Shown here piece by piece: positions 1-31,701 of a stretch of 64,000 bases of DNA. Numbering within the stretch: the first letter of the stretch is position 1; every line of letters begins with the position of its first letter. Location of the stretch: positions 29,282 to 93,281 of the forward strand of contig JAZOCU010000054.1 of NCBI GenBank assembly GCA_045596625.1, in the 5' to 3' direction. Made by a program: the position numbers and the translations under genes. Source of the DNA: Oscillospiraceae bacterium (lineage in GTDB: Bacteria; Bacillota; Clostridia; Oscillospirales; Ruminococcaceae). The notes below the pieces were generated by a model, which saw only the letters and a program-made list of their open reading frames with translations, searched no databases and was not told the origin of the DNA.

Positions 1-994
1 CAGCATCGGCACCCACTTCAATTCTGCCTTTGTGCGTTGCACCGATCAGATCGGCAGGAGTACGGGTTGCCATTGTCACCGCATCAGCAAAGGGAACACC
101 AAAGGAAATCGCCTGCTTAACACAGTTCCACAAGGTAGAAGTAGAGCCTGCGATCGCACCATCCATGGTGCGTGCTACGCTGTTTTTCACTTCAATAGGC
201 TGACCGCCGAACTCATAGATGCCATCGGTCAAACCGGTCGCACGCATACTGTCACTGATAATGACCATGCGCTCAGGTCCGAAGGTTTTATACAGCATCA
301 GTACAATGGACGGATGCAAGTGGAGTCCGTCTGTAATTGCCTGCACATAGATGTTCTTTTGTACAGCAGCACCGATCGGGCCGGGATTGCGGTGATGAAT
401 ACCGGGCATTGCATTGAATGTATGGGTCAAGCACATAGCACCGGCTTCGATTGCTTCGATACAGGTATCGTAATCAGCAGCGGTATGCCCCAACGATACC
501 ACAGCGCCGCAATTCTTGATAAAATCCATGCTGCCGGCGAGCTCCGGCGCAATGGTAACCATTTTCATATCGGGCAGGCTCTTGAATTCAGCAAGATCGG
601 GATCCTTAATGAACTTGCCATTCTGTGCGCCCTTATACTTCTCAGCGATATACGGACCTTCCATATGGAAGCCCAAGATCTGTGCACCGGAAACCTCACG
701 GGATGCCTCCGTCACACGACGAATGGATTCATAATCCATTGTCATGGTAGTCGGCAGGAAAGAAGTCGTACCATTCTGTGCCAGATAATTGCTGATCTCT
801 TCAAAATGTGCATCCATGGTATCATAGCCGGCACAACCGTGGGTATGAATATCCACAAGACCGGGAATGACGATCATGGCATCATAGTTTTCGCCTTCAG
901 TATCGGGAGATGCCGGTGCAATGGCAGTAATCTTGCCATTTTCAACGGTAATATCGGAAAGAACACCATTCAGTGTCAGATTCTTCAAAATCAT
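1..994 (-). CDS. nagA: N-acetylglucosamine-6-phosphate deacetylase (3' end cut by window edge)
   Basis: Own translation of the minus strand from ATG at 992-994: MILKNLTLNGVLSDITVENGKITAI...VIPGLVDIHTHGCAGYD...ILGFHMEGPYI...SLGHTAA...THTFNAM. These are amidohydrolase metal-ligand motifs typical of NagA. Missing from the ORF track because it runs off the window. The listed + ORF 32..1027 is its antisense shadow. Confidence 0.85.
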   Translation of the reverse strand, partial: MILKNLTLNGVLSDITVENGKITAIAPASPDTEGENYDAMIVIPGLVDIHTHGCAGYDTMDAHFEEISNYLAQNGTTSFLPTTMTMDYESIRRVTEASREVSGAQILGFHMEGPYIAEKYKGAQNGKFIKDPDLAEFKSLPDMKMVTIAPELAGSMDFIKNCGAVVSLGHTAADYDTCIEAIEAGAMCLTHTFNAMPGIHHRNPGPIGAAVQKNIYVQAITDGLHLHPSIVLMLYKTFGPERMVIISDSMRATGLTDGIYEFGGQPIEVKNSVARTMDGAIAGSTSTLWNCVKQAISFGVPFADAVTMATRTPADLIGATHKGRIEVGADA

Positions 995-6502: not shown

Positions 6503-6928
6503 TTATTGCACAACATTTACAGGAGAAGCCGCCATTGTCAAGGCTTCATCCATCTCAGCATACACGCTGTACAGATCCAGCACGCAAGCCTCAAGCGCAC
6601 GGCAAACACGTTCATCCAGACCAAAGGAATCTCGCAGTGCATTCAAGGTGCGGCGCTCGTTTACATCCTCAAAGCTGTCACAGATCGCAACAGAGAACAG
6701 TTCCATGTATACCTTGCGGCGAAGCGTCTCATCCAGATGCGCCAGCGTATTACGAGCAGCATTAGCTGCCGCAGCATCATAAGAGAAGCCGATCACGCCC
6801 ATTTCGCGCTCATATTGTTCGAGGATTTGTGTTTCCTCCAGATTCACAATACCGTCATCTTCGATGATTTCCGATGCCAGTGTCAAAAATGCCTCTGCTT
6901 CAATTTTTCCAAGCTCATGTAAAAACAT
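6503..6928 (-). CDS. hypothetical acidic helical protein
   Basis: 141-aa ORF with its own promoter and terminator. No motif I can name; a TerB-like helical bundle is only a guess. Confidence 0.5.
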   Translation of the reverse strand: MFLHELGKIEAEAFLTLASEIIEDDGIVNLEETQILEQYEREMGVIGFSYDAAAANAARNTLAHLDETLRRKVYMELFSVAICDSFEDVNERRTLNALRDSFGLDERVCRALEACVLDLYSVYAEMDEALTMAASPVNVVQ

Positions 6929-7002
6929 TGCCGATCATTCCTTTCCGAATCGATATTTTCGTAAGATCCATTCCGAAATGCCATCTGCATTTCTTACAAA
7001 AC

Positions 7003-7031
7003 AGTATACCATATCTGCGGAAAAAATGCAA
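7003..7031 (-). promoter_or_regulatory. sigma-A type promoter for the 141-aa gene
   Basis: Minus strand reads TTGCAT, 17 nt, TATACT. Confidence 0.5.
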
Positions 7032-7079
7032 GCGATTTCACAAAACACCGTCAAATCTTCACGATGCATGCAGATAATA

Positions 7080-9122
7080 TCAATCCAGCATTGCAAGTTT
7101 CCGCAAGATCAAAGCTGCATCCGAGGCCGTTGGTTTTCCATCACGGTCAAGATCTGCCTGCGCTCTGCCTTGCAGCGTTACCGTAACCTGCGGGTCTTCC
7201 GCCACAAACCGGCACAACAATACAACATCAGCAATGGCTACCACGCCGTTTTCATCCACATCACCCAGCAACAATACCGGTGGCTCTGTGGTGGTAGTGG
7301 TTGTCGTAGTTGTAGTGGTTGTCGTAGTTGTTGTGGTGGTAGTGGTTGTTGTGGTTTCCGGTATCGGCTGACAATAGAGGGTACAAGCATCTGCTGAGCC
7401 ATATGACTCGGCACCGCCTGATATCCGAAGCTGAATTGTTACCCGGTCACCATTATACGCATTAGCGGATACTGTAGGGCTCTGCCATTGGTTCCAGCCG
7501 GTCAGATCTCCTTCTGCGGTATCACATACCGTACCATTCACCGCAATGGTCAATACATAATGGGAAGTAGCATCCCCTTGCATCTGCAAGGAAAATACAT
7601 ATGCACCATCTTTGCGGATCTGTACATCGGTTGAAGCGGTGCTGCCGGAAAATGCCGTCTTGGAATACCAATGCAAGGCACAGGCGCCATCATAAGGATC
7701 CTCCTGCCGCACATCAAAATGATCGCCGGCAGTCGGCTGCAGATTCCATCCGCTGGGACGGTCTGTCCATCCATTTTGCATTTCAAAGCCGGGATTCACC
7801 AGCAGATTATCCGGATCAGTTGTCACGCCGCTGCCACGGATCTGCTGAAATACCGACAGGGAGGAAAGCGGCTTGCCGGATGCATCGAACAACGCCTGAT
7901 TATCTACAGAGCTGCCGCCATAATACTTACCGTCGGGATCGTATTCCATAGATGCCTGCGTTGCCCAGCCGGATCCGTCACGCTCCCATTTCTGCAGATT
8001 CTCATCATAGCTGTTGCCCACCGAAAGCCATGCAGGCTCCCAGTAAAACGCACCGATTCCTCTGCCGTTGTCTACAGCAGCCACAGCAGCAAACACATCG
8101 CTGATGCATTGTGCCTGTCCTTCGGGGCTGATGGCATAATTCACATAGCTGCCCAGATCACCATCACCCGAAATGGTATTGGGGAAGTAATCCGCATCGG
8201 TTTTGGTATACAGCCAAGAGGTTTCTGCCACCATGACAAGCTTGTTGTAATTCTTCGCAACGCCATTGAGAACATTGGTCAGATTCGCCATGGTGCCGTG
8301 CCAATAGGGGTAATAGGAAGATGCAAACACATCATAATCCACATTGCATTGTGCAAGCATCTGAGCATAATAATCATAATTGCCCGATTTTTCGGGATTG
8401 GTAAAATGAATGGCAACCAGCGTATTCCGATCAAATTCGCGCACAGCTCTGGCGCCTGCATTCCACAGATTGCCAAGCAGCTGCCAGCCCTCAAGACTCC
8501 AGTTATAATCCGAAAGCATAGTGCCGCACATACCACCCGTCGTTTCATTACCGATCTGCACCATCGCGATCTGTGCACCGGTAGCAGCAACCTGTTTTAA
8601 TGTACCGGCAGTAAACTCATAAATCGCCTGTGCTTTCTGATCATTATTATAATTCGCCCAAGCTTTGGGGGCCTTTTGCTTGGCAGGATCTGCCCAGAAA
8701 TCCGAATAATGGAAATCCAGCAGCATTGCAAGTCCTGCATCGGCACAGCGCTTTGCAATAGCAACAGCACAATCTACATCGCAGGCACCTCCGCCATAGG
8801 TCGCACGGCTTGAAGAATGATAAGGATCGTTCCAGATCCGCACACGCACAGTATTCACACCGGATGCCGCCAACGTTTGAAAGATATCACAAGGATTTCC
8901 CTGTGCATCCCGATATACCACGCCGCTGCGCTCCAAGGCAATCACCGAAGACACATCCACACCCTTGAACGGTGCGCCGTCTGCAAAGGGTGTTGCTGTA
9001 AGTCCTTGAAACACCACCGGTGAGGCTGCTTCCGCTTTGATAACAGAGGCATCCGGCAACGCAGTACCCAGCAGCATCGCAGCCGCACAGCAAAGGGAAA
9101 GAAAAACATTTCTCTTTTTCAT
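7080..9122 (-). CDS. cellulosomal arabinogalactan endo-beta-1,4-galactanase (GH53 - CBM-like module - Thr linker - dockerin)
   Basis: Signal peptide MKKRNVFLSLCCAAAML. GH53 core motifs: GVDVSS, VRVRIWNDP, DFHYSDFWADPAKQ, VQIGNETTGG, AFYWEPAW. A jelly-roll CBM-like module begins NLLVNPGFE. About 23 consecutive Thr follow. The dockerin carries Ca-binding repeats DVDENGVVAIADV and DLDRDGKPTASDA. Start set at ATG 9122 (GGGGA RBS). Confidence 0.85.
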   Translation of the reverse strand: MKKRNVFLSLCCAAAMLLGTALPDASVIKAEAASPVVFQGLTATPFADGAPFKGVDVSSVIALERSGVVYRDAQGNPCDIFQTLAASGVNTVRVRIWNDPYHSSSRATYGGGACDVDCAVAIAKRCADAGLAMLLDFHYSDFWADPAKQKAPKAWANYNNDQKAQAIYEFTAGTLKQVAATGAQIAMVQIGNETTGGMCGTMLSDYNWSLEGWQLLGNLWNAGARAVREFDRNTLVAIHFTNPEKSGNYDYYAQMLAQCNVDYDVFASSYYPYWHGTMANLTNVLNGVAKNYNKLVMVAETSWLYTKTDADYFPNTISGDGDLGSYVNYAISPEGQAQCISDVFAAVAAVDNGRGIGAFYWEPAWLSVGNSYDENLQKWERDGSGWATQASMEYDPDGKYYGGSSVDNQALFDASGKPLSSLSVFQQIRGSGVTTDPDNLLVNPGFEMQNGWTDRPSGWNLQPTAGDHFDVRQEDPYDGACALHWYSKTAFSGSTASTDVQIRKDGAYVFSLQMQGDATSHYVLTIAVNGTVCDTAEGDLTGWNQWQSPTVSANAYNGDRVTIQLRISGGAESYGSADACTLYCQPIPETTTTTTTTTTTTTTTTTTTTTTTEPPVLLLGDVDENGVVAIADVVLLCRFVAEDPQVTVTLQGRAQADLDRDGKPTASDAALILRKLAMLD
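7287..7355 (-). repeat. coding homopolymeric Thr linker (ACN codon run)
   Basis: About 23 successive Thr codons read on the minus strand between the CBM-like module and the dockerin. Confidence 0.9.
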
Positions 9123-9230: not shown

Positions 9231-9590
9231 TTATCTCGGATCTGCCCGTTCGTTCATTGTATCGGAAAGATAATACTGCAAATAACGCCGCAGCCGGATG
9301 CGAGCACGTTTCAATGTGCGGGAAACAGTACATTCCGCTACCGAATACCGCTCTGCGATTTCTTTCATGGTCATGCCTTCAAAGCAATACAACGCAAAAT
9401 ACTGCTGCTGACAAGGCGTCAGCTCCTGCTTCCAAACCGCCCTAGCAGCGCGCAGCAGGGCCGTTCGCTGCTGCTGAACAGGGATTTCATCAAGGCCAAA
9501 AGCAGCTGCCGTATCTTTCGCACACTGCGCCACCCATCCTGTATCATACTGCAGCACCTCCTGAGAAACACGTGTGCGTTTCTCAGTCAT
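9231..9590 (-). CDS. sigma-70 region-4-type helix-turn-helix protein (no region 2)
   Basis: 119 aa. LTPCQQQYFALYCFEGMTMKEIAERYSVAECTVSRTLKRARIRLRRYL matches the sigma70_r4 / YlxM-like HTH pattern. Start codon overlaps the upstream stop (ATGA at 9587-9590). Confidence 0.6.
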   Translation of the reverse strand: MTEKRTRVSQEVLQYDTGWVAQCAKDTAAAFGLDEIPVQQQRTALLRAARAVWKQELTPCQQQYFALYCFEGMTMKEIAERYSVAECTVSRTLKRARIRLRRYLQYYLSDTMNERADPR

Positions 9591-9871
9591 ATCAATGTAC
9601 CTCGCTCATCATTGGCATAAACTGCAATGCTGCGCATTGCTTCGGCAAGCTCACTATGTTCCGCGGTAAGCAGTGCGATGCGCCGTTCCAAGCGATACTG
9701 CGTGTATATCGACTGCCGATCGCCGGTTTTCTGCTGCACACAGCGTTTCAGCTCACTGCGCAGCGCACGCCGCCGTGCATCCACTGCGCTCATAGCAGCG
9801 CTGTATGTCTGATACATCCGGGTATATGTTCCGCCGCTATTTTCATATTGATTTCCACGTTTTTGCAACAT
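9587..9871 (-). CDS. hypothetical coiled-coil protein, first gene of the SOS-box operon
   Basis: 94 aa, Arg/Glu/Leu-rich heptad-like segment (RRRALRSELKR...RLERRIALLTAEHSELAEAM). GGAGG RBS 7 nt before ATG 9871. Confidence 0.5.
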   Translation of the reverse strand: MLQKRGNQYENSGGTYTRMYQTYSAAMSAVDARRRALRSELKRCVQQKTGDRQSIYTQYRLERRIALLTAEHSELAEAMRSIAVYANDERGTLI

Positions 9872-14079: not shown

Positions 14080-14108
14080 TTGCAATTTTCTTTATGATAT
14101 GCTATACT
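14080..14108 (+). promoter_or_regulatory. promoter of the amino-acid ABC substrate-binding protein gene
   Basis: TTGCAA, 17 nt, TATACT. Confidence 0.6.
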
Positions 14109-14185
14109 ATATGCGTTATTTCATTGTAGGCACCCGCTTGCAAAATGACAGAAGTTTTTAAAATCAGAAAGTGAGGAAGTTCTCT

Positions 14186-15022
14186 ATGAAAAAATCATTT
14201 GTTTTTAAGCGATTGTTCGCCGGTATTCTGGCAGCAGGTCTGCTCTTTTGCAGTGCAGGCTGCAGCGACAGCAGCAAATCCGACAACAACGCTGCAGGCG
14301 ATCAGTCTTTGCAGAAGGTTCTTGACAGCGGAAAGCTGATCCTGGGTCTGGATGCAACCTTCAAGCCCATGGGCTATACCGATGAAAACGATCAAATCGT
14401 TGGCTTTGACATTGACGTTGCTATGGAAGTCTGCAAGAGAATGGGCGTTGAGCTGGTCAAGCAGCCCATCAACTGGGAAACTAAGGAGGAAGATCTCGAC
14501 GGCGGCAGAATCGACTGCATCTGGAACGGTATGTCCATCAATCCCGAGCGTGCAAATCGTATGAATCTTTCCGAAGCCTATATGAAGAATGAGATGGTAT
14601 TCATCGTACCTGCCAACAGCGAAGCAAAGTCCATGAGTGATCTGGCAAATAAGCGGATCGGTGTACAGAACGGTTCTACCGCACAAACCATTCTGCAAGA
14701 ATGTGAAATCGGCAGCACCATCACCGAATCTGCAATGGCAACCAACATCGAAGCCATGCAGCAAATGGAGCTGGGTCTGATCGATGCCGTATTCCTCGAT
14801 GTGATTGTAGCAGATTATGAAATTACCATGGGCAACAAGGATTACCGTATCCTGCCTGACGGTCTTTCTGAGGAAGAATATGCCATCGGTTTCCGCAAGA
14901 ACGACCAAGCTTTGCGTGATGAAGTACAGAAGATCCTCGTTGAAATGAAGAAAGACGGCAAGCTCGGTGAGATCTCTACTGCATGGTTCGGCAGCGATAT
15001 CACCACCGTATCCGCAAACTAA
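14186..15022 (+). CDS. amino-acid ABC transporter substrate-binding lipoprotein
   Basis: Lipobox LFCSAGC. Family-3 SBP layout (LGLDATFKPMGY, GFDIDVA, DCIWNGMS). ATG 14186 with a GAGGAAG RBS. Confidence 0.85.
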   Translation: MKKSFVFKRLFAGILAAGLLFCSAGCSDSSKSDNNAAGDQSLQKVLDSGKLILGLDATFKPMGYTDENDQIVGFDIDVAMEVCKRMGVELVKQPINWETKEEDLDGGRIDCIWNGMSINPERANRMNLSEAYMKNEMVFIVPANSEAKSMSDLANKRIGVQNGSTAQTILQECEIGSTITESAMATNIEAMQQMELGLIDAVFLDVIVADYEITMGNKDYRILPDGLSEEEYAIGFRKNDQALRDEVQKILVEMKKDGKLGEISTAWFGSDITTVSAN

Positions 15023-20879: not shown

Positions 20880-22814
20880 TCAGGAAAGCTCAAACATTCC
20901 CGTATACAGCTGATAATATTTGCCTTTCTGTGCGATCAGCGTTTCATGATTGCCGCGTTCGATGATCTCGCCCTTTTCCAGCACCATAATCGCCTGTGCA
21001 TTCCGGATGGTCGATAATCTGTGCGCAATCACAAATACCGTTCTGCCTTCCATCAACTGATCCATGCCTTTTTCGATCAAAGCTTCGGTACGGGTATCAA
21101 TAGAGCTTGTGGCTTCATCCAGAATCAGTACCGGCGGATCGGCAATAGCAGCACGGGCGATTGCCAGCAGCTGCCGTTGTCCTTGGCTAAGATTTGCACC
21201 ATCGGCAGTCAGCATGGTATCATAACCCTGCGGCAAATGGGAGATGAAATAATGTGCATTGGCGCGCTTGGCTGCGGCAATGACATCTTCATCGCCGGCA
21301 TCCAGTCTGCCATATTGGATGTTTTCCCGAACTGTACCGGTGAACAAATGCGTATCCTGCAATACCATAGCAAGAGAACGCCGCAGATCATCTTTTTTGA
21401 TCTTATTGATGTTAATGCCATCATAACGGATCTTGCCGTCAGGCACATCATAGAATCGATTGATAAGATTGGTGATGGTGGTTTTTCCGGCACCCGTCGA
21501 ACCTACAAAGGCGATCTTTTCACCGTCATTGGCATAAAGCGAGATATCATTGAGCACGATCTTTTCCGGCGTATAGCCGAATACGACGTGATCAAACTCC
21601 ACATTGCCGTTTACGGGTGTATAGGTGATCGTGCCGTCCTTATGAGGATGCTTCCATGCCCAAAAACCGGTGCGCTCCGACACTTCTTCTATGGTGCCGT
21701 CGGCAAGCTTACGGGCATTGACCAGTGTGACATAGCCGTCATCCACTTCCGGCTCCTCATCCAGCATACGAAAAATACGTTCCGCACCGGCAAGGGAAGA
21801 AAGGATCGTACCAAAAAGCTGTGCCACCTGTGTGATGGGTCTGGTGAAAGTTCGGCTGTATTCCAAAAAGGAAATCAGTGCACCCAGAGAAATCATGCCG
21901 TGAATACCCATAATGCCGCCGCAGATCGCAGTAACCGCATAACAGATATGAGACAGATTGGCCATAATGGGCATCAGCATATTGGAAAAGGAGTGGGCTT
22001 CCGTGGCAGCATGGCAAAGCGTTTCATTGCGCTGTGCAAAGCCTTCCTTGGTTGCATTCTCATGACAGAATACTTTGACGACCTTCTGTCCTTCGATCAT
22101 TTCTTCAATATAGCCATTGACAGCACCGATGGCTTGCTGCTGCTGCTTGAAGAATTTTCCCGAACGGCCCGCCAGTGTTCCGGCAATTTTCATTTGTACT
22201 GCAAGGAACAAAAGCACCAGAATCGTCAGCATCCAGCTGTAACGCAGCATCATGACAAAGGTGCCGGTAACGGTAACAATACCCACCAGCAATTGAGAAA
22301 GCGTATTGGAAAGCATTTCACGCAGCGTATCCACATCATTGGTATAGTGACTCATCAGCTCGCCGTGCGTATGCGTATCAAAATAACGAATGGGCAACCG
22401 CTCCATATGAGAAAACATCTGCTTGCGGATCTTGAACAGTGTGCTCGAAGAAACCTTCAGCAGCAGTCTTGCATAGAGATAAGCGCTCAGAGCACCGCTG
22501 AGATAGATGACAGCCATGATCAGCAGGGTACGGATCAATCCGCCCATTTGCTCAAGCTCCATCAGATTCTTGACAGGTCCCGAAGCATATTCACTGATCA
22601 TCGGTGTGAGATAATCGTCAATGATGACCTGCAGAAATGAAGTACCAATAACCTGTGCCAGTGTAGAAATCAGAATAAATACTCCGATCAGCAAAAGCAG
22701 CAGCCGATATTCGGCAAAATAGGAAAACAATCTGCGGATCGTTTTTCCCATATGCTCGGGTTTTTTGCCGGGGGCGAAATTCTGCGGGCCCCTTCCGCCT
22801 GCCATACGAGCCAT
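20880..22814 (-). CDS. ABC exporter, fused permease/ATPase (heterodimer partner B)
   Basis: 644 aa with a six-helix TMD, then Walker A GSTGAGKTT, signature LSQGQRQ and Walker B LILDEATS. Start overlaps the upstream stop (TAATG). Confidence 0.9.
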   Translation of the reverse strand: MARMAGGRGPQNFAPGKKPEHMGKTIRRLFSYFAEYRLLLLLIGVFILISTLAQVIGTSFLQVIIDDYLTPMISEYASGPVKNLMELEQMGGLIRTLLIMAVIYLSGALSAYLYARLLLKVSSSTLFKIRKQMFSHMERLPIRYFDTHTHGELMSHYTNDVDTLREMLSNTLSQLLVGIVTVTGTFVMMLRYSWMLTILVLLFLAVQMKIAGTLAGRSGKFFKQQQQAIGAVNGYIEEMIEGQKVVKVFCHENATKEGFAQRNETLCHAATEAHSFSNMLMPIMANLSHICYAVTAICGGIMGIHGMISLGALISFLEYSRTFTRPITQVAQLFGTILSSLAGAERIFRMLDEEPEVDDGYVTLVNARKLADGTIEEVSERTGFWAWKHPHKDGTITYTPVNGNVEFDHVVFGYTPEKIVLNDISLYANDGEKIAFVGSTGAGKTTITNLINRFYDVPDGKIRYDGININKIKKDDLRRSLAMVLQDTHLFTGTVRENIQYGRLDAGDEDVIAAAKRANAHYFISHLPQGYDTMLTADGANLSQGQRQLLAIARAAIADPPVLILDEATSSIDTRTEALIEKGMDQLMEGRTVFVIAHRLSTIRNAQAIMVLEKGEIIERGNHETLIAQKGKYYQLYTGMFELS

Positions 22815-24550
22815 TATTCTACCCCCTTCTGCTGACTTTCATATACCTCACGGTAGATGCTGTTGGTTATCAAAAGATTTTCATGGGTATCGAAGGCATT
22901 GCATTTTCCTTCGTCCATGACCAGAATGCGGTCTGCCTCAGCAACAGAGGAGATTCGCTGTGCAATGATCAGTGTGGTAATACTGCCGTGCCTTTTGCGC
23001 AGAGCTTCACGGATCTTGCTGTCGGTTGCCGTATCTACGGCGCTTGTGGAATCATCAAGGATCATGATCTTTGGTTTTTTCAACAATGCACGGGCAATAC
23101 AGAGCCGCTGCTTCTGTCCGCCGGATACATTTGTGCCGCCTTGTCCCAGATCGGTATCATAACCATCGGGGAAGGATGTGATGAACTCATGCGCCTGTGC
23201 AGCTTCACAGGCAGCAACGATCTCCTCTTCGGTGGCATCGACATTGCCCCAGCGCAAATTATCACGAATCGAGCCGGAAAACAGCACATTCTTCTGCAAT
23301 ACCATTGCCACTTGATTACGAAGCGTATCCAGTTTGTAATCCCGCACATCATGGCCGCCGACCAACACACGGCCCTCTGTCACATCATACAAGCGTGGGA
23401 TCAATTGCACCAGTGTGCTCTTGGCTGAGCCGGTACCGCCAATGATACCAATGGTTTCGCCGGAACGGATCGAAAGATTGACATGCTCCAAATTCAGATT
23501 GTTGCTGTCCTTATTATAAGAAAAGGATACGTTCTCAAATACAATAGAACCATCCTCACATTCCAATGCAGGATCGGCATGTTCATCATTGATATCCAGC
23601 GTTTCATCCAGCACTTCACAAATACGGCGGATAGATGCCAGCGAAATGATCACACTGACGAAAATCATGGTGATCATCATCAGTGACATAAGAATCTGAC
23701 CGATATAGGAAATAAAGCTGGAAAGCTCACCGATATCAAAGGTACCTTGGATCGACATTCTGCCTCCGAACCAAAGGATCGCAAGAATACAGCCATACAT
23801 GGAAATCTGCATCAGCGGGCTGTTCAGCAGCACGATTTTCTCAGCAGCGACTTGGGTTTTCCGCACGTCATCGGCGCTGACTTCGAATTTATCGATTTCA
23901 TGGCGTTCCCGTACAAATGCCTTTACCACACGGATCGCAATCAGATTTTCCTGCAATGCGCCGTTCATGCGGTCATACTTTTCCAGCATTTTTTGGAATC
24001 GAGGATATGCATTGGTTGCAATGAGAAACAGCATAGTAGCAAGGAACGGAATAACAATCGCAAAAACCAGTGCCATTTTCGCATTGATCGTAATCGCCAT
24101 GATCAATGCACCGATCAGCATGGAAGGAGAACGCACCATCATACGGATGCACATCATAAATGTGTTCTGTACATTATTGACATCGGTGGTTAAACGGGTA
24201 ATCAGAGATGCGGTAGAATAGCGATCAATGTTGGAAAACGAAAAATCCTGCACACGATCAAACAGCTTTGCACGCAGATTTTTACCGAATCCGATGCCCG
24301 CTTTGGCAGAAAATCTGCCGCCCAAGGCGCCGCAGATGAGAGACAAGATCGAAGCAATGATCATAACAATACCGATTTTGACGGTATAGGCAGTATCCAA
24401 GGCTTGAATGCCGTTGGTAACCATTTTTGCCATCAGAAAAGGAATCAGGATTTCAAGGCCTGCTTCTCCCAGCATTACAAGAGGCGTATAAATGGCATAT
24501 TTTTTATATTCCCCCAGACAGGAAAGCAGTTTTTTCATCATTTGCAGCAT
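22814..24550 (-). CDS. ABC exporter, fused permease/ATPase (heterodimer partner A)
   Basis: 578 aa. Walker A GGTGSAKST, signature VSGGQKQRL, Walker B MILDDSTSAVD. Confidence 0.9.
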   Translation of the reverse strand: MLQMMKKLLSCLGEYKKYAIYTPLVMLGEAGLEILIPFLMAKMVTNGIQALDTAYTVKIGIVMIIASILSLICGALGGRFSAKAGIGFGKNLRAKLFDRVQDFSFSNIDRYSTASLITRLTTDVNNVQNTFMMCIRMMVRSPSMLIGALIMAITINAKMALVFAIVIPFLATMLFLIATNAYPRFQKMLEKYDRMNGALQENLIAIRVVKAFVRERHEIDKFEVSADDVRKTQVAAEKIVLLNSPLMQISMYGCILAILWFGGRMSIQGTFDIGELSSFISYIGQILMSLMMITMIFVSVIISLASIRRICEVLDETLDINDEHADPALECEDGSIVFENVSFSYNKDSNNLNLEHVNLSIRSGETIGIIGGTGSAKSTLVQLIPRLYDVTEGRVLVGGHDVRDYKLDTLRNQVAMVLQKNVLFSGSIRDNLRWGNVDATEEEIVAACEAAQAHEFITSFPDGYDTDLGQGGTNVSGGQKQRLCIARALLKKPKIMILDDSTSAVDTATDSKIREALRKRHGSITTLIIAQRISSVAEADRILVMDEGKCNAFDTHENLLITNSIYREVYESQQKGVE

Positions 24551-25128
24551 CAGATTCCTCCTTTATGTTCTGCGGCACAGTGGACAGGATCTGTACAGAC
24601 AGCATCCTCCTGTGCGATTTCTCTGGCAAGTGTTTGCAGCTCAAGGGGTGTGACTTCCATCGGTGTTCTCCCCAGAGCACGCTCCATATGTTCTGTCATG
24701 CGGCATAAATAGTCTGTGAGCTGCTGCAGCTCTGTTTCGGAAAATCCGTCAAAGACCGCCGCATCAAACTGATCGATGACATCACAGCAGCTTTTCAGGA
24801 CATCCTTACCTGCCTCTGTTAACACAAGCTGCTTGCAGCGCTGATTATCGGGACAGACTGCCGCTGTCAGATATCCCAATTGCTTCAGAGGCTTTATTGT
24901 CATGGCTACGGCAGCAGGCGTAATATTCAGCCGTTCCGCCACATCGATCTGCTTGCAGCCGGGATGCTTCAATATATCCTCCAGCAAATGAACCTGCGTT
25001 CCATTGAGCGGTGCAGTATGCTCTACCTGTCGGATATAGATCCTACGCAAAAAATGCAGCTTGGCAAATCGGCCGAACAACTTGCGATATCGTTCCGCAG
25101 CATTCGGATCCCGGATCGTTTCTGTCAT
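24550..25128 (-). CDS. MarR-family transcriptional regulator with C-terminal extension
   Basis: Winged-HTH core (QIDVAERLNITPAAVAMTIKPLKQLGYL). 192 aa, about 45 aa longer than typical MarR proteins. Translationally coupled to the exporter genes. Confidence 0.85.
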   Translation of the reverse strand: MTETIRDPNAAERYRKLFGRFAKLHFLRRIYIRQVEHTAPLNGTQVHLLEDILKHPGCKQIDVAERLNITPAAVAMTIKPLKQLGYLTAAVCPDNQRCKQLVLTEAGKDVLKSCCDVIDQFDAAVFDGFSETELQQLTDYLCRMTEHMERALGRTPMEVTPLELQTLAREIAQEDAVCTDPVHCAAEHKGGI

Positions 25129-25176: not shown

Positions 25177-25205
25177 ATTATACTCATGATTCCTGATTCT
25201 GTCAA
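25177..25205 (-). promoter_or_regulatory. consensus promoter of the marR-ABC operon
   Basis: Minus strand reads TTGACA, 17 nt, TATAAT. Confidence 0.7.
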
Positions 25206-25267: not shown

Positions 25268-25296
25268 TTGACAAAACTTGGCGGTTGTGGTATGAT
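25268..25296 (+). promoter_or_regulatory. promoter of the cobalamin-regulated operon
   Basis: TTGACA, 17 nt, TATGAT. Divergent from the marR promoter. Confidence 0.65.
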
Positions 25297-25389
25297 TGTT
25301 GTGTCAGTGCTCATACACTGATGACCTTGAAAATTACAAATCACAAAGCTATGCCGCAAGCAGGATCGCTGCATAGCTTTACATCATAT

Positions 25390-25495
25390 GCAGAGCGGCG
25401 CTGCTTACAGCAGCCAATGTGAGGGAAGTTCGGTGAAAATCCGTCGCAACAGCCATTACCGTAACAGTCGGAATACTCACCGCATTCTGCAACGG
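25390..25495 (+). promoter_or_regulatory. cobalamin (B12) riboswitch aptamer, compact type
   Basis: GTGAGGGAAGTTCGGTGAAAATCCG (25419-25443) matches the conserved GGGAA...GGTGAAAATCC core. AGTCGGAATACTCACC (25466-25481) resembles the B12 box AGYCMGGAGACCTGCC. GTGAG pairs with CTCAC to close the junction. Confidence 0.65.
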
Positions 25496-25629
25496 GAGTC
25501 GGAACAGCATTTTTCAAACGCTTGACCGGCACATTTTTGGGTATGAAAAGTGCAACCGTTTGTTGATCCTAGGATAAGGGCGCAGTGTCGGCATTTGACC
25601 AAGCGACCGATCTGAATCAACAGGCTGTT

Positions 25630-25675
25630 GCGCTTTTTTCTGTCTTTTGAATGACAGAAAAAGGCGTTTTTTTTT
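25630..25675 (+). terminator. leader (expression-platform) terminator upstream of the first ORF
   Basis: GCGCTTTTTTCTGTC TTTTGAAT GACAGAAAAAGGCG followed by T9. It ends 22 nt before ATG 25698. Confidence 0.75.
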
Positions 25676-25697
25676 ATTGGGAAAGAGAGGTGGTATT

Positions 25698-25937
25698 ATG
25701 GCATCGCACAGCAAAGCGGAGGCAATTCTTTGGCTGCAGCAAATGCAGGAAAAGCTGCTGGCTGAGGGAATCAGACGATATCCGAAACGCAGCGATTTCA
25801 CTGCCGAGCAAGTCGTTGCGATCAAAGCACATCTCGGGCCATGGCCTCGTGCACTGGAAGCAGCTGCTCTGAAACCATCTTGCAATACCGAGCCGGCTTC
25901 CCAAAGCAATGAAAAGCGCATAGTAAAAAACAAATAA
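25698..25937 (+). CDS. small hypothetical protein (79 aa), first ORF of the B12 operon
   Basis: AGAGAGGTGG RBS then ATG 25698. RYPKRSDFTAEQVVAIKAHLGPWPRALEAAAL resembles the repeat found next to homing endonucleases (P..DF....I...FGSW..AL..AGL). The track start 25647 would include the terminator T-run. Confidence 0.45.
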   Translation: MASHSKAEAILWLQQMQEKLLAEGIRRYPKRSDFTAEQVVAIKAHLGPWPRALEAAALKPSCNTEPASQSNEKRIVKNK

Positions 25938-25953
25938 AAAAGGAGAAAGTATC

Positions 25954-26802
25954 ATGAAAAAACAAACTTTTGCTGCAATGCTTTTGAGTACGATGCTGAC
26001 AGCATGCATCATTCCCTGTTTTGCTTCCGCTGCTGACAAAGCGGAGGTAACGGTAACCATTGCCGATGCAAACGGCAATCTTGTACTGACACAGGCCGAT
26101 GTCATAGTCACGGATGCCGATCAGGATGGTGTACTTACCATCGGTGATGCATTATACGCTGCGCATGAAACCTATTATGAAGGCGGTGCCGCAAGCGGAT
26201 ATTCCGCCTCGATCACCGATTACGGTCTGAGCTTGAATATGCTTTGGGGTAATCCGAACGGCGGCTCGCATGGATACTATCAAAATCATATGGCTCCCTT
26301 AAGTCTTTCGGATCCTATTGCCGATGGTGATCGGATCGCTGCATTTTCCTATACGGATCTGACAGGCTGGTCGGATCAGTATTGTTATTTTGATGCAGAT
26401 ACGGTATCGGCAGCCGAAGGAGAACACATCACACTGACCTTGCAGGGCGCAGGATACGATGCGGCTTGGAATCCTGTCTGCGTCCCTGTTGCGGATGCTT
26501 ATATTGTGCTGGATGGTGTCCGCACTGCTTATCAGACGGATGCGGAAGGAACCGTAACACTGCCTTTATCCGCTGTGGGAACCCATATCATCAGTGCCGA
26601 ATCGGATACCATGATACTGGTGCCGCCGGTATGTATCGCCGCTGTCACCGCTTCGGATCCATCTGCAGCAGCACCTGCCACAACCTCTGCCGATATGGTC
26701 GATACCGGTGACAGCAGCCTGTCTGTATGGCTGCTTGCTGCTGTGAGTCTGATGGGAATCGCTGCAATCGGATGCGGATATCGGATCAGATGCAGAAAGT
26801 GA
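25954..26802 (+). CDS. secreted DUF4430-like (transcobalamin beta-domain-like) protein with Ig-like module and C-terminal membrane anchor
   Basis: Signal peptide MKKQTFAAMLLSTMLTACIIPCFASA. VTVTIADANG...ITDYGLSLNMLWGN...GYYQNHM...ADGDRIAAFSY fits the DUF4430 pattern. A second beta-rich module follows. C-terminal hydrophobic helix plus RIRCRK tail. Confidence 0.6.
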   Translation: MKKQTFAAMLLSTMLTACIIPCFASAADKAEVTVTIADANGNLVLTQADVIVTDADQDGVLTIGDALYAAHETYYEGGAASGYSASITDYGLSLNMLWGNPNGGSHGYYQNHMAPLSLSDPIADGDRIAAFSYTDLTGWSDQYCYFDADTVSAAEGEHITLTLQGAGYDAAWNPVCVPVADAYIVLDGVRTAYQTDAEGTVTLPLSAVGTHIISAESDTMILVPPVCIAAVTASDPSAAAPATTSADMVDTGDSSLSVWLLAAVSLMGIAAIGCGYRIRCRK

Positions 26803-28424
26803 GAACACTATGGCGTTTGCCGTTATGGCTGCTATCGGTATTCTGCTGCTTGCAGAGTATTATATTACCTTGTGCTGCATCCGATCAGCATTCGGCAGTG
26901 TATGACAAAATCATACAGGCACAGCTGACATCGTCAGATGCCAAGGATATCCAAGCATGGATTACCGATACATTGGCAGCACGTGCAGGCAGCGGCTCGC
27001 CGGAATGGTATGCTATGGCACTTGCACAATCGGGATGCTCTTATAATATGACGGCCTATACAGAAGCACTGCAAACTGCGATTTATGATCCGATGAACAA
27101 TGCGGTGCAACGTCAGCGATGCGCACTGGCTTTGTTGGCTGCTGATCCCGATCACAGTGCCGATGCAATGGAGCGGCTGCTTGCCGAAACCCTTGGCAAG
27201 CAAGGCATCATGAGCGAAATATTCGGTCTGCATCTGATACAGCTTGGAGTACCGTCCGTGCAAAGCATTGCGTCTGTTGTGCAGCTGCTTTGCACGCGTC
27301 AGCTTGCGGATGGCGGATGGGCACTTTCGGGCAGCACAGGCGATGTGGATGTGACTGCCATGGTCATTCAGGCATTGGCTCCGCACCGTAAGATACAGGC
27401 AGCGGAAGATGCCATTGCACAGGGATTGTCTTTTTTATCGGCAAAGCAGCTGGATGACGGCAGCTTTGTCAGCTATGGCGTATCCAATCCCGAAAGCGGT
27501 GCCCAGGTTTGGATCGCACTGGCTGCTCTGGGGATCGATTATCAAACCGATACACGGTTTTGCAAAAACGGCAATACGATCATGGATGCGATCCTGCGGT
27601 TTCAGTGTGCATCGGGGGGCTTTTCGCATATCGCAAACGGTAAAGAGAATGCCAATGCCACGGTGCAGGTGTTTTTGGCACTGACGGCGCAACGGCTGCT
27701 GGAAACAGAGCAGCGCAGTCTGTATGCTTTTGCACGAAAAGCAGCTCCCGTTACGAACATCTCCACCGCATCTTCAGCGACAGAGCAGATCACAAGCAGT
27801 CACAATACCGAACTTGCAACATCCCCTGCCGGAACACTGCCGCTGCGATGGATCCTTACTGCTGTGATCCTTCTGGGTGCAGCTCTGATCTGCGTGATAA
27901 TGCGGCGGAAAGGACGCCGTCATCCCAATCATATTCTGCTTGTGCTGGGCATCGGGGGGATATTGATCGCTGCGGTATGGTGGATCCGTTTGGAAACACC
28001 GGAGCAATATTACGGAACACAAACAGAAAAAAACAATGTGATCGGCAGTGTAACATACAGTATTCGCTGTGATCTGCTGCCGAAAGAGCATACCCATTCT
28101 CATTTGCCGGAAAATGGCATTCTGCTTGCTCCGACCGAGCTTGCTCTTGCAGAGGGAGAAACCGTACTGGATCTGCTGTATGAGGTCACAAAAGCTCAGC
28201 AGCTTCAACTGGAAGTAAACGGCTTGCAGGATGAGCAGGCTTATATCCGAAGTATTGCTAATCTATATGAGTTCGATTACGGGGATCTATCCGGTTGGGT
28301 TTATCGGGTCAACGGAACCTCTCCCTCCATCGGCTGCGGACAATATTTACTTTCGGATGGGGATGTCGTTGAATGGGTCTACTCACTTTCACTGGGAGAG
28401 GATCTACCGGATGCGGAACAATAA
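26790..28424 (+). CDS. prenyltransferase/squalene-oxidase-repeat (alpha/alpha toroid) protein - TM hairpin - DUF4430 domain
   Basis: Signal-like N-terminus. Three visible toroid repeats: QLADGGWALSG, QLDDGSFVSYG, QCASGGFSHI. Two TM helices flank RRKGRRH. The C-terminal domain (SGWVYRVNGTSPSIGCGQYLLSDGDVVEWVYS) is a textbook DUF4430 signature. Start 26790 overlaps the previous gene by 13 nt; 26772 is also possible. Confidence 0.65.
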   Translation: MQKVRTLWRLPLWLLSVFCCLQSIILPCAASDQHSAVYDKIIQAQLTSSDAKDIQAWITDTLAARAGSGSPEWYAMALAQSGCSYNMTAYTEALQTAIYDPMNNAVQRQRCALALLAADPDHSADAMERLLAETLGKQGIMSEIFGLHLIQLGVPSVQSIASVVQLLCTRQLADGGWALSGSTGDVDVTAMVIQALAPHRKIQAAEDAIAQGLSFLSAKQLDDGSFVSYGVSNPESGAQVWIALAALGIDYQTDTRFCKNGNTIMDAILRFQCASGGFSHIANGKENANATVQVFLALTAQRLLETEQRSLYAFARKAAPVTNISTASSATEQITSSHNTELATSPAGTLPLRWILTAVILLGAALICVIMRRKGRRHPNHILLVLGIGGILIAAVWWIRLETPEQYYGTQTEKNNVIGSVTYSIRCDLLPKEHTHSHLPENGILLAPTELALAEGETVLDLLYEVTKAQQLQLEVNGLQDEQAYIRSIANLYEFDYGDLSGWVYRVNGTSPSIGCGQYLLSDGDVVEWVYSLSLGEDLPDAEQ

Positions 28425-28439
28425 TCAAGGAGGGAAACG

Positions 28440-29312
28440 ATGCAACGTTTTGAGCAGGGACATCCGCTGCCTGTTGCCATACACCTGCTAAGCACAGCAC
28501 TGATTGCCATGTTCTGCCGTGACCCGTTGCTGCTGGGACTTTCTCTTTGCAGTGCATTGGGCTGTTATTGGCTGCAGCGACTGGATCATAGACTGCATCG
28601 ATGGGCTTTGCTGCTGTTTTTCGGCTTCACTCTGCTGACACCGTTATGGAATCAACGCGGCTCGACTGTATTGTTTGTTCTCAACGATCGTCCTGTTACG
28701 TTGGAAGCGGTATGCTATGGTGCTGTATCTGCACTGATGCTGCTTGCAGTACTGTATTGGTTTGCGCTGTTTTCCCATTGGATGACAACCGATCGGCTTT
28801 TGTATCTTTTCCGACGGCTTTCTCCAAAGCTTGCGCTGACTGTCTCCATGGGATTGCGGCAGGCATCCCTGCTTTCAGCACAGCTGCGGCAGATTCGTGA
28901 GGCGCAGACGGTAATGGGTTTGCAGCAGGAACAGAATCTCATAGATCGGGTACGCAGTGAACTGCGCAGCCTTTCCGCAGTCCTTTCGTGGGGATTGGAA
29001 AACGGCATCGTGACAGCGGACAGCATGAGCGCAAGAGGCTATGGAACCCAAAGACGAAGCAGCTTTTCGTTGTTTGTATTTCATCGAAAGGATGCACTGC
29101 ATCTGCTGATCGTTATCGTGCTGACGGCATCGGTATTGCTGAGCATAACAAAGGGTGTGCTGTTGGATACCTATTATCCGGCGATACAGCTTCCGGCTTG
29201 GAACGGATATTCATGGATTTGCTATTGTGCATACGGATTGCTTTCTTGCTACCCCCTGCTTCAAAACGGAAAGGAGACGCTGCAATGGCGATACTTACAG
29301 TCGAAAATTTGA
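28440..29312 (+). CDS. ECF transporter transmembrane (T) component, CbiQ/EcfT family
   Basis: 290 aa, polytopic. Coupling-helix motif ending ...ADSMSARGYG. GGAGGG RBS. Confidence 0.8.
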   Translation: MQRFEQGHPLPVAIHLLSTALIAMFCRDPLLLGLSLCSALGCYWLQRLDHRLHRWALLLFFGFTLLTPLWNQRGSTVLFVLNDRPVTLEAVCYGAVSALMLLAVLYWFALFSHWMTTDRLLYLFRRLSPKLALTVSMGLRQASLLSAQLRQIREAQTVMGLQQEQNLIDRVRSELRSLSAVLSWGLENGIVTADSMSARGYGTQRRSSFSLFVFHRKDALHLLIVIVLTASVLLSITKGVLLDTYYPAIQLPAWNGYSWICYCAYGLLSCYPLLQNGKETLQWRYLQSKI

Positions 29313-30943
29313 GCTTTTGGTATCCGGAACAGACCAAGCCTGCTATTGAGGAAATCTCTTTTTCGGTGGAAGAAGGTGCCTTTGTCACGCTCTGCGGCAC
29401 AACAGGCTGTGGGAAAAGTACGCTGCTGCGTCTTTGTAAGCGAGAGCTGATTCCTCGTGGTGAGCAAAAGGGAGTCGTATGTTTTCAAGGAAAGCCGCTT
29501 GGCGCTCTGGATGCCCGTACTGCAGCTTCAGACATTGGATTTGTCGCGCAGCAGCCTGAACAGCAGATCGTTACCGATAAAGTATGGCATGAGCTTGCAT
29601 TCGGACTGGAAAATCTCGGTCTGCCGCAACAGGAGATCCGCCGACGTGTTGCGGAAATGGCATCTTATTTTGGTATTACCGAATGGTTTGAACGAGATAC
29701 GGCATCTCTTTCAGGCGGGCAAAAACAGCTTTTGAATCTGGCAGCGGTAATGATCATGCAGCCAAAGCTTCTTTTGCTGGATGAACCAACAGCGCAGCTG
29801 GATCCGATTGCGGCAGGTGAATTTATCACAACACTGCATCAGCTCAATCGGGAGCTGTCTCTGACCATTCTCATGACCGAGCATCGGCTGGAGGAGGTCA
29901 TACCGCTTTCGGATACACTCATGGTCATGGAGCATGGCAAACAAATCGCTTATGATTCACCTCGCAGCGTACTTTCGACAATATCTCCGACATCTCCCCT
30001 GCTGGGCGGTATGCCCGCTGCAGCGCAGCTATATCACGCTTTAGGTGCAGGAACTTCTCACTGTCCTCTGACACCAAGAGAAGGCAGAATGTACTTACAG
30101 GAACACTGTGCCCTGCCATCCCGTCTGCCTGCAGCAGCATCCCAAACATCGTCTGCATCAGCGCCTGCTCTGGAATGGAAGGGTGTTTATCAGCGATATC
30201 ATCGCAATGCGCCGGATATCCTGACGGATTTTTCCTTGTGCATCCATGAAGGAGAATGCTTTTGTCTGTTGGGTGGAAACGGTGCCGGAAAATCCACTGC
30301 ATTAAAAGCCGCAGCAGGACTGCTGAAGCCTTATGCAGGCAGCATTCGTATCTTCGGAAAAAAACAGTCAGACTATACAAACGGCACTTTGTATCATCAT
30401 TGTCTTGCCATGCTGCCGCAGAATGTACAGACACTGTTTGTGAAAAACACTGTGAAAGAGGAACTTGCGGAGATCGGCACTGCAGCAGAAACCTTCCCAT
30501 TTGATCTGACACAATGGTATGATCGCCATCCCTATGATGTCAGCGGCGGAGAGCAGCAGCTCATCGCTCTTGCCAAGATCATGGGACAGAAGCCGCGGAT
30601 CCTATTGCTTGATGAGCCGACGAAGGGTCTGGATGCGGATGCCAAAGCACGATTGGGGCGTGTGCTGCATACCTTACAGCTTCAAGGTGTGACCATCGTG
30701 ATCGTGACCCATGACATTACCTTTGCTGCTGTTTATGCACAGCGATGCGGACTGCTGTTTCGCGGAAATCTGATAGCGGCAGAACCGCCGGACCGTTTTT
30801 TTGCAGGCAATCATTTTTATACTACCGCCGCCCATCGGATGAGCAGAGGACTATGCGAAAATGCCATCACGGTAGAGCAGCTCGCACAGTACGGCAAACT
30901 GCGGATACAACAGGAGGGTGCCCATGCAGATCATAGAGCATAA
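29285..30943 (+). CDS. ECF transporter fused double ATPase (EcfA-EcfA')
   Basis: Starts MAILTVENLSFWYP. Two cassettes: GTTGCGKST with LSGGQKQ, and GGNGAGKST with VSGGEQQ. GGAGA RBS. The track ORF 28988 start is an out-of-frame overlap with the T component gene. Confidence 0.9.
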   Translation: MAILTVENLSFWYPEQTKPAIEEISFSVEEGAFVTLCGTTGCGKSTLLRLCKRELIPRGEQKGVVCFQGKPLGALDARTAASDIGFVAQQPEQQIVTDKVWHELAFGLENLGLPQQEIRRRVAEMASYFGITEWFERDTASLSGGQKQLLNLAAVMIMQPKLLLLDEPTAQLDPIAAGEFITTLHQLNRELSLTILMTEHRLEEVIPLSDTLMVMEHGKQIAYDSPRSVLSTISPTSPLLGGMPAAAQLYHALGAGTSHCPLTPREGRMYLQEHCALPSRLPAAASQTSSASAPALEWKGVYQRYHRNAPDILTDFSLCIHEGECFCLLGGNGAGKSTALKAAAGLLKPYAGSIRIFGKKQSDYTNGTLYHHCLAMLPQNVQTLFVKNTVKEELAEIGTAAETFPFDLTQWYDRHPYDVSGGEQQLIALAKIMGQKPRILLLDEPTKGLDADAKARLGRVLHTLQLQGVTIVIVTHDITFAAVYAQRCGLLFRGNLIAAEPPDRFFAGNHFYTTAAHRMSRGLCENAITVEQLAQYGKLRIQQEGAHADHRA

Positions 30944-31607
30944 GCAAACCCGGATTTTACTGTCATGGCTGCTCCCGCTTTTGATCATGCCGCCGATCGT
31001 TTATCTCAGCACGAAGCTGAACACCCGCTATACGGCCGCCATGATCCTGCTGATGGTAGCATTGACCCTGCTGCTGTTTCTTTCAGGCATCAGCCGCAAG
31101 GAGCTTGGTACCCGCAGAATGGTTCTTTCAACCATTTTTATCGGCATGGCAATTGCCGGACGCGCACTGCCGATCATCAAGCCCGTAACAGCACTGACGA
31201 TTCTTGCGGCAATGTATCTTGGCAAAGAAGCCGGCTTCCTTGTGGGAGCATTGTCTGCAGTGCTTTCCAATTTCTTTTTCGGCCAAGGTCCATGGACACC
31301 GTTTCAGATGCTTGCATGGGGATTGATCGGCTGGCTTGCCGGTATTCTTGCAGTACCGCTGCAGCGGCATCGATGGCTGCTGCTGGGATACGGCGCAATC
31401 ACCGGCTTAGGATACTCCATGCTGATGGATGTCTGGACGGTATTATGGCATTATGAAAACTTTTCAGCAGCATCTTATGGCGCTGTGCTGATCACAGCTA
31501 TACCGCATATGCTTTTATATGTTTGCGGCAATGTGTTGTTTCTGGCGGTGCTCGGTAAGCCGATTGGCGATAAGCTGCTGCGGATCCGGAAAAAATATGG
31601 TATATAG
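30924..31607 (+). CDS. ECF transporter substrate-capture (S) component, predicted corrinoid-specific by context
   Basis: About 227 aa with six hydrophobic helices and no soluble domain. GGAGGG RBS. Overlaps the ATPase gene end by 20 nt. Confidence 0.65.
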   Translation: MQIIEHKQTRILLSWLLPLLIMPPIVYLSTKLNTRYTAAMILLMVALTLLLFLSGISRKELGTRRMVLSTIFIGMAIAGRALPIIKPVTALTILAAMYLGKEAGFLVGALSAVLSNFFFGQGPWTPFQMLAWGLIGWLAGILAVPLQRHRWLLLGYGAITGLGYSMLMDVWTVLWHYENFSAASYGAVLITAIPHMLLYVCGNVLFLAVLGKPIGDKLLRIRKKYGI

Positions 31608-31641
31608 AATGGCAGGGGTGCATACTTCTGTCATTCTTTTT
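31607..31641 (+). terminator. terminator of the ECF operon
   Basis: GAATGGCAG, 12-nt loop, CTGTCATTC, then TTTTT. Confidence 0.7.
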
Positions 31642-31672
31642 CGCAAAAAGAATGACGAGCTGCAAACAAAAG

Positions 31673-31701
31673 TTGAAAAAAAGCAAAATCTGTGCTATAA
31701 T
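31673..31701 (+). promoter_or_regulatory. promoter of the ABC-F gene
   Basis: TTGAAA, 17 nt, TATAAT. Short leader of about 35 nt with no attenuator. Confidence 0.6.

Follow-up and report, generated by a model that had tools for sequence, protein, structure and literature searches.

Bacterial proteins that resemble the animal carriers of vitamin B12 were considered by Burroughs, Balaji, Iyer and Aravind, who in 2007 predicted that transcobalamin-like SLBB proteins serve bacteria as B12 scavengers (PMC1796856). As described in the passages devoted to them, these proteins are fused to an alpha/alpha toroid, carry signal peptides or Gram-positive anchors, have a second extracellular SLBB protein in the operon as well as CbiO/CbiQ neighbours, and occur in genomes without B12 synthesis; a bacterial origin of the animal B12 carriers is proposed there (PMC1796856). 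ECF-CbrT of Lactobacillus delbrueckii is a characterised vitamin B12 transporter of the energy-coupling factor (ECF) type (PDB 6FNP; PMC5997447), and the lsa1836-1840 operon of Lactobacillus sakei, which encodes S, A-A' and T subunits together with separate transcobalamin-like alpha and beta proteins, has been assigned to haem uptake (10.1101/864751). In Bacteroides, the riboswitch-linked surface proteins BtuG, BtuH and BtuJ, for which cobamide capture has been proposed or shown, are outer-membrane lipoproteins that feed the TonB-dependent BtuB (PMC8941943, PMC13616437). Cobamides are a contested currency of the gut, and while their capture by Bacteroides is well described, there is a gap for the Gram-positive Clostridia, which are co-dominant there (PMC13616437); a 2026 review describes the extracellular capture of cobamides by Gram-positive bacteria as 'entirely uncharacterized' (PMC13616437). 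Here we analyze a six-gene operon at positions 25268-31641 (+) of a stretch of 64,000 nucleotides from an Oscillospiraceae bacterium (assembly GCA_045596625.1, contig JAZOCU010000054.1, positions 29,282 to 93,281 of the forward strand), the whole of which is referred to as the window, and compare it with these systems.

The operon forms one transcription unit composed of a promoter, a cobalamin riboswitch, a leader terminator, six genes and an end terminator, and with a probability of roughly 75% we read it as a B12-starvation-induced operon for corrinoid scavenging and import in a Gram-positive gut anaerobe. The analysis was carried out in silico and provides the parts of the system with their homologies, the fold of the transcobalamin-like protein P3, the topology, and control by a riboswitch and terminator. 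The features are the following:

25268..25296 (+): sigma-70-type promoter, TTGACA-17-TATGAT with extended -10 TG, 11/12 matches, 83 nt 5' of the aptamer start
25379..25498 (+): cobalamin riboswitch aptamer, short class, with the Rfam core match at 25407-25486
25630..25677 (+): leader intrinsic terminator, hairpin 25630-25667 with a 15-bp stem, U9; -22.4 kcal/mol, z -6.8
25698..25937 (+): orf79, 79 aa, ribosome-binding site gagaggtgg
25954..26802 (+): P2, surface protein with a signal peptide, an N-domain, an immunoglobulin (Ig)-like domain and a sorting signal
26790..28424 (+): P3, transcobalamin-like protein of 544 aa with a toroid, a transmembrane (TM) hairpin and a DUF4430 domain
28440..29312 (+): EcfT, CbiQ-family transmembrane coupling subunit, PF02361, ribosome-binding site aaggaggg
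29285..30943 (+): fused EcfA-EcfA' double ATPase, 552 aa, two ABC_tran domains, TIGR04520
30924..31607 (+): S component, CbrT homologue, 227 aa, PF07155, ribosome-binding site caggaggg
31606..31641 (+): operon-end intrinsic terminator, 14-bp stem, 4-nt loop, U5; -18.2 kcal/mol, z -5.7

An initial annotation of the same DNA had proposed a single transcription unit running from promoter to terminator with three gene overlaps (26790/26802, 29285/29312 and 30924/30943). Each element is present where it was placed, and the overlap coordinates are correct. The same annotation had listed a B12 riboswitch with a leader terminator, a 79-aa open reading frame, a P3 made of a toroid, a TM hairpin and a DUF4430 domain, an EcfT, a fused double EcfA and an S component, and all of these were borne out by the family matches, orthologous leaders and covariation given below, P3 having a length of 544 aa. 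Ribosome-binding sites are good for all six genes but P3, the start of which overlaps the stop of P2; this start agrees with the NCBI model. The operon-end terminator was missed in a simple scan and was recovered on folding. No enrichment of promoter-like sites overall was seen in the region (15 found vs. 10 +/- 3.6 expected), and the call of the operon promoter therefore rests on its quality and position.

One genome per species was scanned with the P3 family, and 80 loci were kept. P3 relatives are present in at least 570 species genomes; among the matches listed, nearly every carrier is a metagenome-assembled genome (MAG) from gut or rumen that belongs to Oscillospiraceae, Lachnospiraceae, Ruminococcus or other Clostridia, the closest being an Oscillospiraceae MAG from sheep rectum (L001) with 71-90% protein identity across the operon. 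The order orf79-P2-P3-T-AA'-S is kept in most of the 80 loci. Rearrangements were also observed: L060 has two riboswitch matches (6778-6926 and 9568-9708), one before P2-P3 and one before orf79-EcfT-AA'-S, and L050 has the same split order with a riboswitch match (6886-7033) before P2-P3 only; the ECF genes come first in L013, L030, L032, L059 and L076 and lie on the opposite strand in L034 and L052. P2-P3 occur without adjacent ECF genes in L004, L009, L014, L027, L043, L066 and L081/L082 (the last two also encode orf79), so that in such genomes P2 and P3 may work with a transporter whose genes lie at another site. Despite the lack of adjacent ECF genes, the riboswitch is kept in at least L004, L009, L027, L043, L066 and L081.

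Control of the operon by cobalamin was assessed from the leader and its orthologs. The sole Rfam cis-regulatory match in the whole window is to RF01689, a member of the cobalamin clan, at 25407-25486; its score of 36.5 bits equals the gathering score exactly and is borderline. At the curated Rfam thresholds, one of the two models of clan CL00101 (RF00174 or RF01689) matches just upstream of the cluster and on the same strand in 24 of the 38 orthologous loci scanned, with scores of 32-93 bits. Aligned with 16 other short-class elements (alignment A5), the window aptamer shares 30 invariant core columns (GGGAAG..GGTGAAAATCC..CGCAAC..CATTACCGT..AGTCGGAATAC) and belongs to the short class that is without the optional P6-extension hairpin. 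RNAalifold had misfolded the invariant core, and the five-helix leader structure was specified by hand. In this structure 92% of the cells are paired as compared with 31-50% when the partner is slid, compensatory changes occur at 14 of 21 pairs, and the observed values are reached by none of 500 shuffles. A custom covariance model (R1) scores the window aptamer at 97.3 bits, the window being in its training set, and yields 71 matches in 1.18 Mb, which fall in 69 of 84 sources and invariably lie on the strand of the operon. With this model the riboswitch was found in 65 of the 80 genome loci. The distance from the match to the first cluster gene downstream of it is 86-442 nt (median 188) for 66 of 67 matches, and of the 15 loci in which none was found, seven are cut off at the operon 5' end. 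A terminator-like hairpin followed by a T-run is present within 220 nt 3' of the aptamer in 54 of 70 leaders compared with 0-1 of 70 control regions. Given the orthologous leaders, the conserved core, the covariation and the conservation of the terminator, we therefore conclude that the leader is a genuine cobalamin riboswitch with a conserved termination platform. The terminator at 25630-25677 is, judged by sequence, the expression platform, and the switch probably binds cobalamin and has OFF polarity. Matches of the leader to a PyrR site and to microRNAs were rejected, as they score well short of the threshold and stem from the terminator hairpin. Two additional RNA elements were seen in orthologous loci: L056 has a second cobalamin riboswitch match (14087-14286) downstream of the operon and before another gene, and L028 has two tandem Gut-1 RNA (RF01706) matches at 18-101 and 150-231 (-) upstream of the homologous operon.

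P3 is composed of a signal peptide, an alpha/alpha toroid (residues ~30-310), a TM hairpin (348-402) and a DUF4430/SLBB beta domain (~415-535), and an RRKGRRH loop joins the two TM helices. Because the signal peptide is cleaved and the positive loop is cytoplasmic, the toroid and the beta domain are both outside. The match to DUF4430 (PF14478) has an E value of 1.7e-16 and matches to SQHop_cyclase are weak; DUF4430 is also found at the C-terminus of vertebrate TCN proteins (PMC4350170). An AlphaFold2 (AF2) model of P3 has a predicted local distance difference test (pLDDT) score of 88, and in a Foldseek search with this model the 15 best PDB matches are all transcobalamin, haptocorrin or intrinsic factor, with E values of 1e-7 to 3e-6 over ~540 columns that cover both domains; terpene cyclases and prenyltransferases, which match the toroid only, rank next. 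The high root-mean-square deviation to the cobalamin carriers (~12 A) reflects a different domain arrangement in the P3 model. By analogy with these carriers, a corrinoid would be clamped between the two domains of P3. In an alignment of the family (A1), His280 (~27627-27629) is invariant within the toroid motif GGF(S)H and stands beside an invariant Gln and Asp. Transcobalamin has a His ligand to cobalt, and by analogy His280 could be a cobalt-coordinating or ligand-contacting residue.

The three ECF genes encode the parts of a transporter. EcfT matches PF02361 (CbiQ) with 26.6 bits (cutoff 25), EcfA-A' has two ABC_tran domains and matches the equivalog model TIGR04520 (ECF_ATPase_1) with 317.8 bits against a cutoff of 315, and the S component matches PF07155 with 40.1 bits against a cutoff of 26.7 (E 4.9e-10). 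The T, A-A' and S genes are adjacent or overlapping, the arrangement by which group I (dedicated) ECF transporters are recognized. As a single sequence the S component matches CbrT (6FNP_A) with an E value of 2.7e-6, and as a profile of 26 sequences (alignment A3) with an E value of 8.3e-14 over 164 positions; 6FNP_A is its only significant solved relative, the next match (4hzu_S) having an E value of 0.0024. The S component is evidently a CbrT homologue on the basis of this match, in line with the dedicated T-A-S module of CbrT type that the initial annotation had proposed, and it would transport cobalamin. With 227 aa it is longer than the typical ~180 aa, and the homology to CbrT begins at about residue 64. 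The preceding N-terminal extension of ~60 residues (~30924-31110) has hydrophobic segments at 10-30 and 34-59 and is conserved in the family. The CbrTUV / CbrT family was reportedly predicted to be riboswitch-regulated by Rodionov in 2009. CbrT was later validated (PMC5997447).

Assembled into a mechanism, these parts would act as follows. When cobalamin is plentiful, the leader riboswitch would bind it, the terminator at 25630-25677 would form and the six genes would be silent; when cobalamin is scarce, transcription would read through the leader. P3 would sit in the membrane by means of its helical hairpin, with the toroid and the beta domain facing outward and clamping a corrinoid at the membrane surface much as transcobalamin does. 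P2, which is predicted to be held further out in the wall by a sortase-type anchor, may be the first captor and pass the corrinoid inward, or it may be a scaffold for P3. The CbrT-like S component would then receive the corrinoid, and EcfT and EcfA-A' would drive its import with ATP. The identity of the ligand, the clamp, the OFF polarity of the switch and a hand-off that runs from P2 by way of P3 to the S component are our inferences.

The AF2 model of P2 has a pLDDT of 85.5, and a Foldseek search with the whole chain gave Ig-like matches only, the list being dominated by the Ig domain. The chain consists of an N-domain of ~110 residues (28-136, at 26035-26361) and an Ig/transthyretin-like domain (~140-235). 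The N-domain contains a near-invariant EF-hand/dockerin-like loop, DADQDGVLTIGD, with the pattern DxDxDGxLTIxD. The sorting signal of the P2 family has the consensus [SA]PxTGD followed by a TM segment and RKK; 8 of 44 family members match PF00746, and one is called an LPXTG protein by NCBI. Going by these sequences, the members of the P2 family are probably attached through a sortase-type signal and not merely by a TM helix. The initial annotation had taken P2 for a secreted, C-terminally anchored protein with a DUF4430-like domain and had counted two transcobalamin-like surface proteins in the operon. Secretion and anchoring hold for P2, and P3 has both halves of the transcobalamin architecture; the DUF4430-like label of P2, and with it the count of a second transcobalamin-like protein, is not supported, as none of 44 P2 family members matches PF14478 in Pfam at E values up to 1. 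The N-domain profile likewise has no PDB sequence relative and no Pfam model, and on the 44 members, Pfam and the PDB profile search P2 was rejected as a DUF4430 protein at the sequence level. An hhalign comparison of the trimmed P2 N-domain with the P3 C-domain is marginal (E 0.05, probability 1%), although in this alignment the strand-strand-helix-hairpin-strand-strand elements of the P2 and P3 AF2 models coincide; a whole-alignment hhalign of the P2 and P3 families was spurious.

A profile search of 1.84 billion representatives revealed that the P2 N-domain belongs to a large, unclassified family with 1113 cluster representatives. The domain often occurs in tandem repeats, on chains as long as 3,720 aa, together with SLH, choline-binding, dockerin and sortase anchors. 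It is fused to a toroid and DUF4430 in two of these proteins (P0444 and P0442) and to DUF4430, a beta-propeller and SLH in a third (P0377). By these fusions the P2 N-domain is linked functionally to the transcobalamin-like module; in the chains of P0444 and P0377 it lies apart from a DUF4430 that is genuine. A related observation is that L086 encodes, at 7001-9076, a lone 691-aa protein in which the P2 N-domain, a toroid and DUF4430 are combined; model R1 found no riboswitch for this gene.

The first gene of the operon, orf79, encodes a small basic cytoplasmic protein that has neither a signal peptide nor a TM segment; it has a basic tail, and its core, RYPxRSDFTxxEVVAIKAHLGPWPRALEAAG, is almost invariant (alignment A4). 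With 283 homologues it is a real conserved gene. Its sole family match, to PF18780 (HNH_repeat), is sub-threshold (E 2e-4), and a profile match to PRP17, an unrelated eukaryotic protein, was discarded as a fortuitous likeness of LGPW type. In 42 loci orf79 follows the riboswitch ahead of all other cluster genes; it opens the operon in three of three independent look-ups and lies directly before EcfT in rearranged loci. The gene is specific to this operon family. Going beyond the corrinoid import reading itself, we entertain, with rather more doubt than belief, that the P2 N-domain is a new extracellular module for corrinoid binding or hand-off, that with P3 and the CbrT-type ECF transporter it forms a wall-to-membrane cobamide relay as a Gram-positive counterpart of BtuG/H/J, and that orf79 is a cytoplasmic regulator or B12 acceptor.

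A number of points weigh against reading the operon as a corrinoid capture and import system. The Rfam score of the window itself lies right on the threshold. In window P2 the sorting signal is MVDTGD, in which Pro is replaced, followed by a TM segment and RIRCRK, and it thus departs from the family [SA]PxTG; fold, Pfam and PDB profile searches of P2 gave no detectable relation to known B12 binders. The P3 toroid profile is nearest to squalene-hopene-type cyclases (E 1e-10), neither phmmer nor the toroid profile retrieved a transcobalamin, intrinsic factor or haptocorrin chain for P3 at E values up to 10, and Pfam gave no PF01122 match in P3 at E values up to 0.01. Finally, deletion and complementation in L. 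sakei tie a similarly composed operon (S, A-A', T, beta-like and alpha-like) to haem accumulation (10.1101/864751). From its fold matches and its profile results taken together, we regard P3 as transcobalamin-like in architecture and fold and not as a sequence member of the eukaryotic family.

The alternative that survives best keeps the corrinoid importer and assigns P2 and/or P3 to another task, namely surface storage or retention, discrimination or exclusion of analogues, or, for P2, a scaffold only. That ECF-CbrT of L. delbrueckii functions without such surface proteins (PMC5997447) speaks for it, as do the lack of similarity of P2 to known B12 binders, the Ca loop of P2, which suggests protein-protein docking, and the P2-P3 pairs that lack an adjacent ECF module in some genomes. 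On the other hand, P2 and P3 are co-transcribed in most ECF-carrying loci, where their genes overlap in a way that suggests translational coupling, they share one B12 starvation signal, and the two-domain fold of P3 is tethered beside the membrane, so that in the model a hand-off to the S component would be sterically plausible. We therefore hold it unlikely that the surface proteins have only such tasks.

Less probable still, in our view, is an importer of haem or another tetrapyrrole like that assigned to lsa1836-1840. The genetic evidence from L. sakei just mentioned favors it, and a transcobalamin-type cleft could in principle hold other planar macrocycles. Yet a cobalamin riboswitch precedes the cluster in 65 of 80 loci, that of the window included, with a terminator behind it, whereas no haem- or iron-responsive element was seen; the closest solved relative of the S component is the B12 transporter CbrT, and the L. 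sakei study left B12 out of its tests. A B12-regulated cobalt/nickel-type (CbiQ/CbiO) transporter, or a P3 toroid acting as an envelope terpenoid cyclase or prenyltransferase-like enzyme, can be set aside as highly improbable, since the Pfam labels CbiQ and cbiO-type for the T and A subunits and the cyclase match of the toroid profile are countered by the lack of CbiM and CbiN in the operon, by the CbrT-like S component, and by P3 itself, which is ruled out as an enzyme because it is extracellular and carries neither a DxDD nor a DDxxD motif, and which has the whole-chain fold of the cobalamin carriers.

The genes that flank the operon are unrelated to it. Upstream, a perfect consensus promoter, TTGACA-17-TATAAT, at 25177-25205 (-) diverges from the operon promoter and apparently drives the genes of 20880-25128 (-), which encode a MarR regulator (24550-25128) and a pair of ABC exporters of the half type (22814-24550 and 20880-22814). 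The downstream neighbor is an ABC-F ATPase gene with its own promoter (31673-31701), and genes for a Na:Ala symporter and P-type ATPases follow. An AT-rich perfect palindrome, TCATTCTTTTT-CGC-AAAAAGAATGA, at 31629-31657 (+) (-12.8 kcal/mol, z -3.6) shares positions with the end terminator in its U-tract and lies just 5' of the promoter of the next gene.

The initial annotation had proposed that transcobalamin-like surface proteins are coupled to an ECF transporter in a corrinoid capture system. Both the design and the prediction of B12 scavenging were already published in 2007 (PMC1796856), and its reading therefore re-derives a known idea; the value of the operon lies in testability and breadth and not in surprise. 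Its statement that a capture role was undemonstrated in Firmicutes agrees with our findings, as we found no paper showing corrinoid binding by bacterial DUF4430 proteins and the 2026 review is of the same opinion (PMC13616437). Since the operon family is present in at least 570 species genomes and nearly all its copies have riboswitch control, it is a concrete and widespread candidate for cobamide capture in Clostridia. Its study would settle whether such systems, including the 'haem' ECF of L. sakei, take up corrinoids, haem or both.

Compared with the described systems, the operon combines familiar with novel parts. In the literature examined we found no description of orf79, the TM-hairpin tether, the family of the P2 N-domain, the N-terminal extension seen in the S component or the riboswitch-terminator control that is nearly universal in this operon family. 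In particular, the passages of Burroughs et al. on these proteins mention no riboswitch, S component, TM hairpin between toroid and SLBB, or small cytoplasmic gene (PMC1796856), and unlike in their set the second extracellular protein of the window, P2, is not a detectable SLBB paralogue. The likeness to L. sakei is one of composition; in the sections that concern lsa1836-1840, no B12 riboswitch, P2-type protein or orf79 is reported (10.1101/864751), and the alpha and beta parts are separate there, whereas P3 of the window holds both transcobalamin halves in one chain. With ECF-CbrT the window module shares the ECF architecture and a homologous S component, and by analogy its substrates would be cobalamin and cobinamide. 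However, ECF-CbrT shares a general (group II) module and is without surface accessory proteins, whereas the window module is dedicated and co-transcribed, its EcfA and EcfA' are fused, its S component has ~60 extra residues that are absent from L. delbrueckii CbrT, and orf79, P2 and P3 are added.

In its logic, the proposed route from wall to membrane has its closest Gram-positive parallel in the Isd haem relay of Staphylococcus aureus, in which sortase-anchored wall proteins pass a macrocycle inward. That relay differs in its NEAT domains, its ligand haem and its Fur control, and it feeds a classical ABC importer. The initial annotation had also likened the surface proteins to BtuG and BtuH. 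The likeness to BtuG/BtuH/BtuJ stands as a functional analogy only, as the folds are unrelated and no BtuG/BtuH family was seen in the Pfam and fold searches of P2 and P3, which included no dedicated comparison; homology is thus not indicated. The closest structural parallels are the mammalian carriers transcobalamin, intrinsic factor and haptocorrin (2BB5, 2PMV and 4KKI), which are composed, as is P3, of an alpha6/alpha6 toroid and a beta-grasp DUF4430 domain. P3 may thus be regarded as a bacterial, membrane-tethered version of the transcobalamin clamp, which bears on the proposed bacterial origin of the animal B12 carriers (PMC1796856). The mammalian carriers are soluble and join their two domains by a flexible linker, whereas P3 has a TM hairpin in its place.

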